The notes under the pieces: generated by a model
What the model was told of the DNA's origin: nothing
The model's input: the letters and a program-made list of their open reading frames with translations, nothing else
Database searches by the model: none
Translations under genes and position numbers: made by a program
IMG/VR virus record: IMGVR_UViG_2534681674_000034
Location: 1 to 27,605 of that record
Reading direction: 5' to 3' (one strand)
Source: a virus
Lineage: Duplodnaviria; Heunggongvirae; Uroviricota; Caudoviricetes
Length of the DNA: 27,605 nucleotides
In this document: positions 20,576-21,171 of the stretch, piece after piece
Numbering within the stretch: the stretch's first letter is position 1
Layout of the letters: each line of letters opens with the position of its first letter

Positions 20576-21007
20576 ATGTTTGGTATTTTTGGTAAAAAAG
20601 CCCGCCGAGCGGCAGTGGAAATTAAAAAGTTTGAGAAACGTGATCTGGCACAGGCGGTTATTAATGCTGCCTATCTGGTGGCCTATGCAGATGGTGAATG
20701 TGAGGCTTCAGAGAAAGCGAAGATCGAGCAGATCTTGCGTAACCAGCCTGCGTTGTCCGCGTTTACGTCAGAAATTAATGCGATTAGCGCAACCATTATC
20801 GGTCAGCTGGATACGAACTTTAAAATTGGTCGTCGAGCGGCATTGCGTGAAATTGAAGATGTGAAACACGATACGCGTGAAGCGGAAGATGTGCTGGATG
20901 TGGCGGTGGCCATTGCGGAGGCAGACGGCGAAATTGAGCCGGAAGAGCGCAAGGTGCTGGAAGAGATTGCCGGTGTTCTGGGTCTTCGTCTGGAGAATCA
21001 CCAGTGA
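20576..21007 (+). CDS. TerB-like domain protein, 143 aa
   Basis: ATG at 20576 with AAGGAA upstream (track ORF starts further upstream). Two ADGE-containing helices typical of TerB-like domains. Confidence 0.6.
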   Translation: MFGIFGKKARRAAVEIKKFEKRDLAQAVINAAYLVAYADGECEASEKAKIEQILRNQPALSAFTSEINAISATIIGQLDTNFKIGRRAALREIEDVKHDTREAEDVLDVAVAIAEADGEIEPEERKVLEEIAGVLGLRLENHQ

Positions 21008-21171
21008 CGGTAAAACTGCGCCTGGCTGTGGCTGCACTCCTGCTGTTTCTGGTGGTGATGGTGGATTTCACCAGCAGAATCATGTCGGTGCTGGCGGATG
21101 GGGTGCTGGTCTGCGGCATTGTGGTATTGCTGTGGCCGGTGATAAAAAGAAACAGCCTGCATAATGCTTGA
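21004..21171 (+). CDS. Small membrane protein, 55 aa, GTG start overlapping the TerB-like stop (below ORF-track cutoff)
   Basis: Hand translation VTVKLRLAVAALLLFLVVMVDFTSRIMSVLADGVLVCGIVVLLWPVIKRNSLHNA with two hydrophobic segments. Confidence 0.4.
   Translation: MTVKLRLAVAALLLFLVVMVDFTSRIMSVLADGVLVCGIVVLLWPVIKRNSLHNA

Follow-up and report, generated by a model that had tools for sequence, protein, structure and literature searches.

A conserved pseudoknotted leader RNA, apparently undescribed, precedes the coupled tciA-tciB cassette of a lambdoid phage and many other phage cargo genes

We analyzed a 27,605-nucleotide (nt) stretch of DNA from a virus of the Caudoviricetes (IMG/VR record IMGVR_UViG_2534681674_000034, positions 1 to 27,605; hereafter the window), concentrating on two overlapping genes at positions 20576–21171 and on the 130 nt directly 5′ of them. 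The gene pair is almost certainly the tciA-tciB (tciAB) cassette, a two-gene accessory module first named in phage P1, which encodes a soluble TerB-family protein and a small protein with two transmembrane (TM) segments. The 130 nt in front of it form a conserved structured RNA leader, missed by the original prediction made from this sequence, that is probably an undescribed translational control RNA. In our estimate, the odds are about even that positions 20446–20575 represent the founding member of an undescribed family of pseudoknotted leaders in enterobacterial phages. Such leaders would govern how accessory ('moron') genes are translated or processed, and would do so by switching, on some signal, between a compact double-pseudoknot fold and a hairpin that sequesters the ribosome site. 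For the two proteins we tentatively favor, at a probability of roughly 35–40%, a complex of TciA and TciB that keeps out superinfecting phages or pore formers by protecting or closing the inner membrane of the infected cell.

The original prediction held that a 143-amino-acid (aa) TerB-like open reading frame (ORF) ends in CAGTGA, and that a 55-aa hydrophobic ORF starts at the overlapping GTG. Both statements agree with the sequence: tciA ends in AAT CAC CAG TGA at 21007, and the GTG at 21004–21006 overlaps this stop codon. The list of ORFs also contains a longer, GTG-initiated version of tciA from 20504, the 143 aa being counted from the ATG, and a tryptophan- and arginine-rich alternative frame of 95 codons at 20877–21164 beside the tciA and tciB frames. 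Membership of the TerB family was borne out by profile searches. TciA matched Pfam TerB (PF05099) at 61 bits against a gathering cut-off of 24.4 (residues 26–138 against positions 2–109 of the 118-position profile) and PHROG 632 ('tellurite resistance') at 1e-68; in a phmmer search of the PDB it matched, over essentially its full length, the structurally solved Klebsiella TerB chain 2JXU_A with an E-value of 4.1e-8 (query 15–137 against chain 21–144). TciB likewise proved to be a genuine small two-TM protein. It matched Pfam DUF3927 (PF13064) at 62.3 bits (cut-off 25) and PHROG 1470 ('TciB-like') at 4e-30 over positions 1–54 of 54, and its hydropathy profile has two hydrophobic stretches (residues ~5–21 and 27–46) with a short DFTSR turn between them. 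Across 18 diverse homologues, differences at codon positions 1, 2 and 3 stood at 2530:1508:4556; because they fall mostly at third positions, TciB is a real coding frame.

RefSeq holds coding sequences (CDS) at exactly the same coordinates, WP_001299632.1 ('tellurite resistance TerB family protein') and WP_000216636.1 ('DUF3927 family protein'). The annotation of phage JLK-2012 names the same genes tciA and tciB, names that reportedly come from the annotation of phage P1 by Lobocka et al. 2004. The pair had been put forward as a new observation; given P1 tciAB, the Pfam and PHROG families and the RefSeq CDS, it is not new in itself. Positions 20400–21500 are 100% identical in prophages of E. 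coli O26:H11 11368, O145 and others, and at least 80% of this region is present in 646 of 5426 complete E. coli genomes.

To describe the pairing, we searched IMG/VR with an alignment of seven TciB sequences; 80 DUF3927 loci were returned and examined, and a TerB hidden Markov model was applied to the ORF ending at each TciB start. A TerB gene lay directly 5′ of DUF3927 in 79 of the 80, a nearly obligate pairing, although the loci are redundant (~30 distinct TciB sequences) and the 79 pairings are not independent. The junctions consisted of a 4-nt GTGA overlap (52 loci), a 1-nt overlap with an ATG start (26 loci) or abutting genes (one locus), so that the coupling architecture proposed for the window recurs in 78 of 79 paired loci. 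A start codon that overlaps the preceding stop, with a Shine-Dalgarno (SD) sequence inside the first gene, is the classical layout for termination-reinitiation, from which a constant ratio of the two products is expected. Among species-representative genomes, each TerB homologue of at least 43% identity was followed at −4, −1 or 0 nt by a hydrophobic ORF of 50–57 aa carrying the motif (V/I)DF(T/S)S..S..D; these genomes were Enterobacterales, Oceanisphaera and one metagenome-assembled genome labelled Bilophila.

Some loci depart from the intact pair (locus labels beginning with L are our own). The sole unpaired locus of the 80 (L204:2347-2647) has a degraded leader (53.7 bits) that runs straight into tciB; since leader and tciB abut, tciA has seemingly been deleted precisely. 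In four E. coli viral contigs (L254, L255, L258 and L263), the TerB frame 5′ of an intact tciB measures only 97 codons from stop to stop, which suggests truncated or frameshifted tciA alleles in some prophages.

Table 1. Coordinates in the window of the tciAB cassette, its leader and neighboring features. Pairing percentages and both-side changes refer to the leader alignment described in the text.
Feature	Position	Strand	Remarks
Conserved structured 5′ leader of tciA	20446–20575	+	Whole element, 130 nt; one copy in the window (filters off)
P1 hairpin GCGCC-ACGCCC-GGCGC	20450–20465	+	98.9% paired; both-side changes in 4/5 pairs
PK1 5′ strand, P1 loop CGCCC	20456–20460	+	Pairs with 20542–20546; 98.9% paired
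P2 5′ strand CCACAGAG	20473–20480	+	Pairs with 20521–20528; crosses P4/P5
Anti-SD CCUUU (P4a 5′ strand)	20481–20485	+	Complementary to AAAGG at 20562–20566; 98.7% paired
P4c 5′ strand GGGUGAGC	20489–20496	+	Pairs with 20550–20557; 97% paired
P5 5′ strand	20501–20505	+	Pairs with 20536–20540; 83% paired; both-side changes in 4/5 pairs
P3 hairpin	20506–20518	+	98% paired; both-side changes in 4/5 pairs
P2 3′ strand CUCUGUGG	20521–20528	+	Pairs with 20473–20480
P5 3′ strand GCUCC	20536–20540	+	Pairs with 20501–20505
PK1 3′ strand GGGCG	20542–20546	+	Pairs with the P1 loop
P4c 3′ strand GCUCACCC	20550–20557	+	Pairs with the P4c 5′ strand
SD AAAGGAA of tciA	20562–20568	+	7 nt 5′ of the ATG at 20576; kept in all leader types
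tciA	20576–21007	+	143-aa soluble acidic TerB-family protein; RefSeq CDS; ATG start
SD GGAG of tciB	20992–20995	+	Within the 3′ end of tciA, 8 nt before the GTG; read from the sequence
tciB	21004–21171	+	55-aa two-TM protein (DUF3927); starts at the GTG of the GTGA shared with the tciA stop
RusA	18420–18779		
Q	18776–19330		
Three tRNAs	19558–19809		
Two small ORFs	19900–20386	+	19900–20124 and 20177–20386
Intrinsic-terminator-like hairpin and T-run	20419–20445	+	9-bp stem, loop of 3 (hairpin 20419–20439) and T-run; directly 5′ of the cassette
STnc100/PasD-type prophage small RNA (sRNA)	21179–21348	+	Rfam RF02076, 102 bits (gathering 47); directly 3′ of tciB
Terminator-like hairpin and T-run	21373–21399	+	Before nanS-p
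nanS-p (SASA esterase)	21486–23339		
Holin	23486–23704		
Endolysin	24104–24637		
Rz	24936–25403		
terS	25845–26390		

The nucleotides of the leader are conserved across hosts whose TciA proteins differ (≤30%), including the Erwinia jumbo phages. We aligned 56 distinct copies, built a covariance model (CM) on the nested helices, and realigned its 88 hits, 76 of them distinct. In this alignment, 95% of cells form standard pairs. Changes on both sides of a pair occurred in 28 of 38 pairs, compared with 5–12 when the partners were slid by 1–3 columns, and none of 500 shuffles reached the observed values. P1, for example, varies as CACAUC/GAUGUG, CCGCC/GGCGG and GCGUC/GACGC, and P4c in divergent copies as GAUGA/UCAUC plus CCUUG/CAAGG. 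Helices P2 and PK1 were proposed by eye and tested separately; they are absent from the CM, so the alignment was not fitted to them. P2 was 93% paired, with both-side changes in five of eight pairs and the variants CCGCAGA/UCUGCGG, CCGUAGAG/CUCUACGG, CCUGCAGA/UCUGCAGG, AACCACAA/UUGUGGUU, GAAAGU/ACUUUC and CACAGAA/UUCUGUG. PK1 has the complementary variants CGCAC/GUGCG, CUCAC/GUGAG, CCGCA/UGCGG and UCACG/CGUGA, and one of its column pairs reads U-A in 35, C-G in 33 and A-U in three sequences. RNAalifold alone returned only the nested P1 and anti-SD/SD fold, with a weak covariation term. The element can be assigned to the + strand because G-U pairs are frequent, and its fold is pseudoknotted because P2 crosses P4 and P5.

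P4a, in which the anti-SD meets the SD of tciA, continues P4c. With P4 and P5 stacked, P2 and P4a cannot both form, because there is a zero-nucleotide junction between them. We infer that the leader is a switch, in which a compact pseudoknotted fold with a free SD would alternate with an extended hairpin that would hide it. A further alternative hiding the initiation region may involve the 3′ strand of P3: by eye, positions 20513–20517 are also complementary to 20570–20574, just before the start codon (GUGAC/GUCAC). The two sides co-change in the L220 type (L220:1938-2084; AUUACGUC/GACGUAAU, 8 bp) and in L240 (UUGCGUC/GACGUAA), and they misfit in two of the three Erwinia copies.

Other readings of these 130 nt were considered and set aside. 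The ORF at 20491–20595 was ruled out as a leader peptide, since leader variants differ by insertions and deletions that are not multiples of three. A promoter of the cassette's own inside the leader was dropped: a sigma-70 scan of 19300–21600 gave no promoter-like site between the terminator and tciA, and the P1 hairpin covaries and must therefore be transcribed. The sigma-70 scan marked a promoter-like site at 20121–20148. The leader is also not one of the Pas sRNAs of enteropathogenic E. coli; PasA and PasC adjoin the holin, and PasD/STnc100 lies 3′ of tciB.

We then asked how far the leader extends beyond this cassette and whether it has been described. Rfam 15 CMs run on 20380–21500 gave nothing at E ≤ 1 except STnc100, leader copies in 13 other loci are covered by no Rfam family, and in the literature we found no paper linking moron, lambdoid and pseudoknot. 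The terminator that had been predicted upstream of the pair is present, and this placement is general: of 68 distinct contexts, 57 have a strict terminator hairpin with a T-run no more than 60 nt before the leader. Three of the other 11 follow directly after a tRNA (L187, L273 and L275), and the rest lack a strict terminator, some having a weaker or AT-rich hairpin. Across homologous loci, the stem sequence of the upstream terminator varies and its position is kept.

A pattern scan of IMG/VR found the same leader before a different coupled pair in the same slot (L290, L331, L340, L358, L363, L371 and L400). In this pair (e.g., L331:1829-2956), a 281-aa periplasmic binding protein of NMT1_3/solute-binding type with a signal peptide (Pfam 43 bits; PHROG 6856) is followed, after 2 nt, by a two-TM ORF of 49–50 aa. 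The latter was tried as a homologue of TciB and rejected, since hhalign found nothing shared beyond 'WP'. CMs also recovered divergent copies 3′ of the lysis genes in the same prophages, with the same architecture of terminator, P1 with covarying PK1, P2, anti-SD, P4 and SD. These precede Rha/antirepressor-like, KilA-N-like, HNH-like and unknown genes (functions read from translations or annotated relatives), and some of the leader-headed genes are then followed by an apparent glycosyltransferase, as read from its translation. JLK-2012, for instance, has a second leader copy before a KilA-N gene. Phage P22 carries a copy 5′ of rha (ORF201) that is 97% identical to that of an IMG/VR contig (L382) and scores 30.6 bits (E 2e-7) with a second model.

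The P22 copy lies between Rz and rha (L407:1499-1658; AF217253 21250-21409). The annotated start of ORF201 (21326) falls inside it, and a start after the conserved SD lies ~70 nt further 3′; the 201-codon annotation may thus be too long. Two kinds of insertion were also seen in leaders. In PPompW phages (L408:2501-2551; e.g., LC567822 15665-15715), identity is 96% over the initial 51 nt of the leader (T-run, P1, the P2 5′ strand and the anti-SD). ISEc20, an insertion sequence of the IS110 family, then breaks the leader and is directly followed by terS; elements of this family may use the conserved leader as a target. In L220:1380-2084, L225 and L240:1358-2081, an apparent HNH/AP2-type endonuclease gene, recognized by translation motifs, is flanked on one side by a truncated 5′ part of the leader (terminator, P1 and P2 5′ strand) and on the other by a complete divergent tciA leader, as if a free-standing homing endonuclease had inserted and duplicated part of the leader.

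Because the leader is common to unrelated cargo genes, it is unlikely to sense a metabolite related to the cargo. More probably, it subjects inserted genes to one shared rule, which could be translation under some phage or host condition only, or processing out of read-through transcripts. SD-sequestering leaders and pseudoknotted riboswitches include the rpoS leader, the IsrK-controlled anrP mRNA of Gifsy-1 and the SAM-II/preQ1-type elements. The tciA leader shares with them an upstream anti-SD, competing or crossing helices with covariation and a position in the 5′ untranslated region directly before the start codon; it differs from them in lacking an Rfam family, heading unrelated cargo and being characteristically preceded by a terminator. 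That placement, right after a terminator hairpin or a tRNA, would also suit an element that processes or insulates, whether self-cleaving or targeted by an RNase, and so separates the cargo gene from a read-through transcript, or else a binding site for a protein or sRNA. The range of genes it heads (TerB, NMT1-type, Rha, KilA-N, HNH and others) and its compact double pseudoknot, typical of ribozymes and of protein- or ligand-binding RNAs, are consistent with such a role. However, no Rfam ribozyme or other family matches it, and the CCUUU/AAAGG complementarity beside the start codon is most simply explained by sequestration of the SD. We regard processing, insulation or a binding site as somewhat unlikely, and the leader as probably a translational control element.

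Turning to the proteins, TciA has an isoelectric point (pI) of 4.98, has no hydrophobic segment and carries two acidic motifs, AYADGECEASE and AEADGEIEPEE, that align with the KP-TerB repeat. TciB is basic (pI 10.0), and the basic residues at both of its ends suggest a hairpin with N-in/C-in topology. R6, D21, F22, S28 and D32 are near-invariant, and W44 and P45 are present in most aligned sequences. At pI 5.0 and 10.0, the charges of the two proteins are complementary.

In the mechanism that we favor, a polymerase reading through the upstream terminator (Q-modified in lytic growth) would transcribe the leader, which would gate the translation of tciA by setting the compact fold (P1/P3/P4c/P5 plus PK1/P2) against pairing of CCUUU with the SD. 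Ribosomes ending tciA at its TGA would restart at the overlapping GTG, which has its own GGAG, and so yield TciB in a fixed ratio. The TciB hairpin, probably N-in/C-in, would insert in the inner membrane with Asp21 and Asp32 near the periplasmic face, and the acidic, soluble, TerB-fold TciA would dock on its cytoplasmic side, a contact that we infer. In this view, DjlA and YebE, whose TerB-like domains are tethered to the membrane, would have a two-piece counterpart in TciA-TciB; TerB working with TerC is the other possible parallel. Such a complex may act on the inner membrane during infection, either altering it or protecting it. As the outcome we favor the exclusion of superinfecting phage DNA or of pore-forming toxins, which would keep the membrane intact while the phage develops.

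Small dispensable inner-membrane proteins that act on the host membrane, some with a soluble partner, are known from several phages (lambda RexA/RexB, T4 Imm/Sp and P22 SieA). The analogy with tciAB is one of function only; exclusion by tciAB is hypothetical, and the pair has no sequence or profile similarity to these systems. DjlA and YebE (DUF533) each have a cytoplasmic TerB-like domain tethered to the inner membrane by a TM segment of their own. TciA has weak partial matches to them, 29.5 bits to DjlA (NCBIfam NF006948) and 23 bits to DUF533/YebE (Pfam), both below the cut-offs. By contrast with these proteins, the TerB domain and the membrane element of the window are separate polypeptides from coupled genes, and there is no J domain. 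Published work associates Ter systems with phage inhibition and with resistance to colicins. For phage-borne Ter genes, among them the 'standalone' TerB of Erwinia jumbo phages, Iyer et al. suggested a role against superinfecting phages, and they make no mention of a small partner gene of the Erwinia jumbo phage TerB (PMC7824862); in Erwinia phage ChrisDB, the small partner gene is annotated. In a genome-wide CRISPR interference screen, P1 tciA, tciB and tciC were non-essential (PMC10695390). We favor membrane protection because the pair is dispensable, patchy and found in lytic and temperate phages, and because Ter systems are linked to phage inhibition and colicin resistance.

The genomic settings of the pair bear on its role. 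In the window, tciAB occupies the cargo slot of a lambdoid late operon, between Q and the tRNAs on one side and nanS-p and the lysis genes on the other. As had been predicted, the pair lies just 5′ of nanS-p, with holin, endolysin and Rz following. In P1 it lies between tRNA genes in the C1-controlled ban operon, in the N4-like lytic phage Pollock in the early region, and in Erwinia jumbo phages among the tRNA genes clustered at the left end; it adjoins TraR- and Dam-like genes in prophages of Serratia and Pectobacterium, and in one viral contig (L233) it lies ~385 nt 3′ of a cI-like repressor gene on the same strand. Strictly lytic carriers (N4-like Pollock, FSL SP-058/076 and Erwinia jumbo phages) thus stand beside P1-type and lambdoid phages. 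TerB homologues occur in 131 phage records, from Vibrio, Pseudomonas, Klebsiella, Salmonella and Erwinia phages. Because tciAB is found in strictly lytic phages too, it serves the phage during infection and not the lysogen alone. Because the pair is spread over lytic and temperate phages and varied positions, a holin-tied or lysogeny-only function does not fit, and tciAB fits the description of an autonomous accessory cassette.

These settings tell against a regulator of lysis timing, an option raised by the original prediction, in which TciB would be an antiholin-like or holin-modulating protein acting on the downstream holin and endolysin. The pair does sit immediately 5′ of the holin or of nanS-p in several lambdoid prophages, and TciB is a small two-TM protein like class II holins. 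However, the pair is far from lysis genes in P1, Pollock, Erwinia jumbo phages and the TraR/Dam-adjacent prophages, and beside a cI-like repressor gene in another context; holin families are absent from the Pfam and PHROGs matches of both proteins, and the slot between Q and the lysis genes is a general cargo slot, which in Stx phages holds stx. We consider a role in lysis timing very unlikely.

Defense of the lysogen, by abortive infection or exclusion from the prophage, was the other option raised. TciA would sense an incoming phage and TciB would depolarize the membrane in the manner of lambda RexA/RexB. The combination of a soluble sensor-like protein with a small membrane protein has the right architecture, the position 3′ of the cI-like repressor gene in L233 is that of rexAB in lambda, and a phage-inhibition phenotype of the ter operon is on record. 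Yet neither protein matched a defense model (see below), and the abortive-infection idea is left without profile support. Expression in a quiescent lysogen is doubtful, too, from a late operon behind a terminator with no sigma-70-like promoter in the 130-nt gap; the leader would limit translation further, and the pair is common in strictly lytic phages. Lysogen defense is accordingly improbable, if less so than lysis timing.

A role in ion or metal homeostasis deserves more weight, though we still judge it unlikely. Here an oligomer of TciB would be a small cation-conducting or cation-binding membrane element that works through the conserved aspartates, and TciA a metal-sensing cytoplasmic regulator, together adjusting the Mn, Ca, Mg or proton balance to the benefit of phage replication. 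Klebsiella TerB, encoded in terZABCDEF (2JXU), belongs to the same Pfam family as TciA and has the same length and two-repeat acidic motif. TerB reportedly works at the inner membrane together with its membrane partner TerC, and TerC-family partners of TerB are metal (Mn/Ca) transporters. Klebsiella terC is reported to contribute to zinc resistance (PMC12054061). Two near-invariant aspartates in or beside the TciB helices, the alignment of the TciA acidic motifs with the KP-TerB repeat, and the presence of the pair in lytic phages, which fits a 'host takeover' or auxiliary role, agree with this idea; PHROGs places both families in the 'host takeover' or auxiliary category. Against it, TciB has no detected transporter-like family, transporters are not known to be built as 55-aa hairpins whose acidic residues lie close to the periplasm, and no metal-related genes are linked to the pair in the contexts examined. 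Unlike in terZABCDEF, the membrane partner in the window is a 55-aa hairpin and not the TerC transporter, with no other ter genes nearby: terC, terD, terZ, terA, terE and terF were not seen near tciAB in the window or in any homologous locus inspected.

Several observations weigh against the favored mechanism, in which the leader gates tciA and TciA-TciB protects the membrane. For the leader, the P4a pairing of anti-SD and SD hardly varies, compensation being seen once only (C-G to U-A in three sequences), and the minimum free energy fold of the window copy (−54.6 kcal/mol, z = −2.3) differs from the covariation-supported one (−39.9 kcal/mol). The single-sequence fold was itself rejected as a candidate, as the alignment gives it no support. 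Moreover, a leader that stands before functionally unrelated genes says nothing specific about the function of TerB. For the proteins, the names tciA and tciB in P1 are based on homology only (GenBank AF234172 notes), and in the literature we found no experiment on the function of either gene. DUF3927 occurs without TerB in phages 434 and 2B8, preceded instead by an unrelated 247-aa membrane protein; Vibrio phage K479 has a TerB without a TciB-like ORF directly downstream; and in Pseudomonas juntendi the ORF after TerB is a different, 67-aa protein. As each also occurs alone, neither TciA nor TciB is strictly dependent on the other. The tails of TciB, the sole parts available for contact with TciA, are short (~5 and ~9 residues). 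To our knowledge, the superinfection-exclusion proteins known so far need no cytoplasmic TerB partner. Lastly, none of the PADLOC-DB 2.0 defense models matched: TciA gave only PDC-S48 at E 0.0056 (13.8 bits), and TciB nothing. The 247-aa protein of phages 434 (L003:2138-3370) and 2B8 is PHROG 1521 and has no Pfam family. In phage 434, DNA homology to the window begins inside tciB, indicating a mosaic joint within the gene.

The closest named relative of the window cassette is tciABC of P1. TciA of the window is 41.5% identical to P1 TciA in AF234172 and 52% identical to that of a second P1 record (OP279344), in each case over the full length; a DUF3927 TciB follows after a 1-nt overlap in P1, with 58% identity over residues 21–51. 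Adjacent tRNA genes are a further likeness, and the genes are non-essential in P1. The two differ in three respects. P1 has tciC (35 aa, one TM), whereas no tciC-like third gene was found in the window, where no conserved ORF follows tciB and the next element is the STnc100-type sRNA; the P1 genes belong to the C1-controlled early ban operon and those of the window to a late operon; and the structured leader was not found in P1 (no CM match).

tRNA genes often adjoin tciAB, as they do in the window, in P1, in JLK-2012 and in Erwinia jumbo phages; one clade of IMG/VR contigs has a tRNA-Arg ~180 nt 3′ of tciB. A tRNA was found within 3 kb of tciAB in only 25 of 97 loci, and the proximity probably arises because both use the same cargo slot, not from a functional link. 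Other loci (E. coli, Klebsiella-type and SBP-type) likewise have the STnc100 element 3′ of the cassette. STnc100 is classed with the PasD prophage sRNAs in a 2026 preprint, which places PasD2 beside the sialic-acid esterase gene. This sRNA is probably a neighbor that does not belong to the protein module. In the interval from the tRNAs to the terminator, the 74-aa ORF at 19900–20124 matches only positions 100–171 of the 291-position PHROG 2571 and may be a gene fragment, and the 69-aa ORF at 20177–20386 matches PHROG 4280, a family of unknown function, over its full length. Other Rfam matches in the window were the RalA antitoxin sRNA (1557–1735, +), the ALIL frameshift pseudoknot of IS3 type (5112–5228, −), DicF (7812–7863, −) and sok (15237–15412, +), all typical cargo of lambdoid prophages.

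The tciAB pair is widespread and annotated. As an autonomous coupled module of lytic and temperate phages, it makes models tied to lysogeny or lysis unlikely. The window cassette departs from the P1 prototype in having no tciC and in carrying a conserved pseudoknotted leader, which appears to be undescribed and is common to many other phage cargo genes. The leader RNA matters more than the gene pair. If our reading of it is true, it would represent a widespread class of regulatory RNA, present even in the textbook phage P22 upstream of rha, and it would account for the silencing or timing of inserted cargo by phages, also of genes that occupy the Shiga toxin slot.

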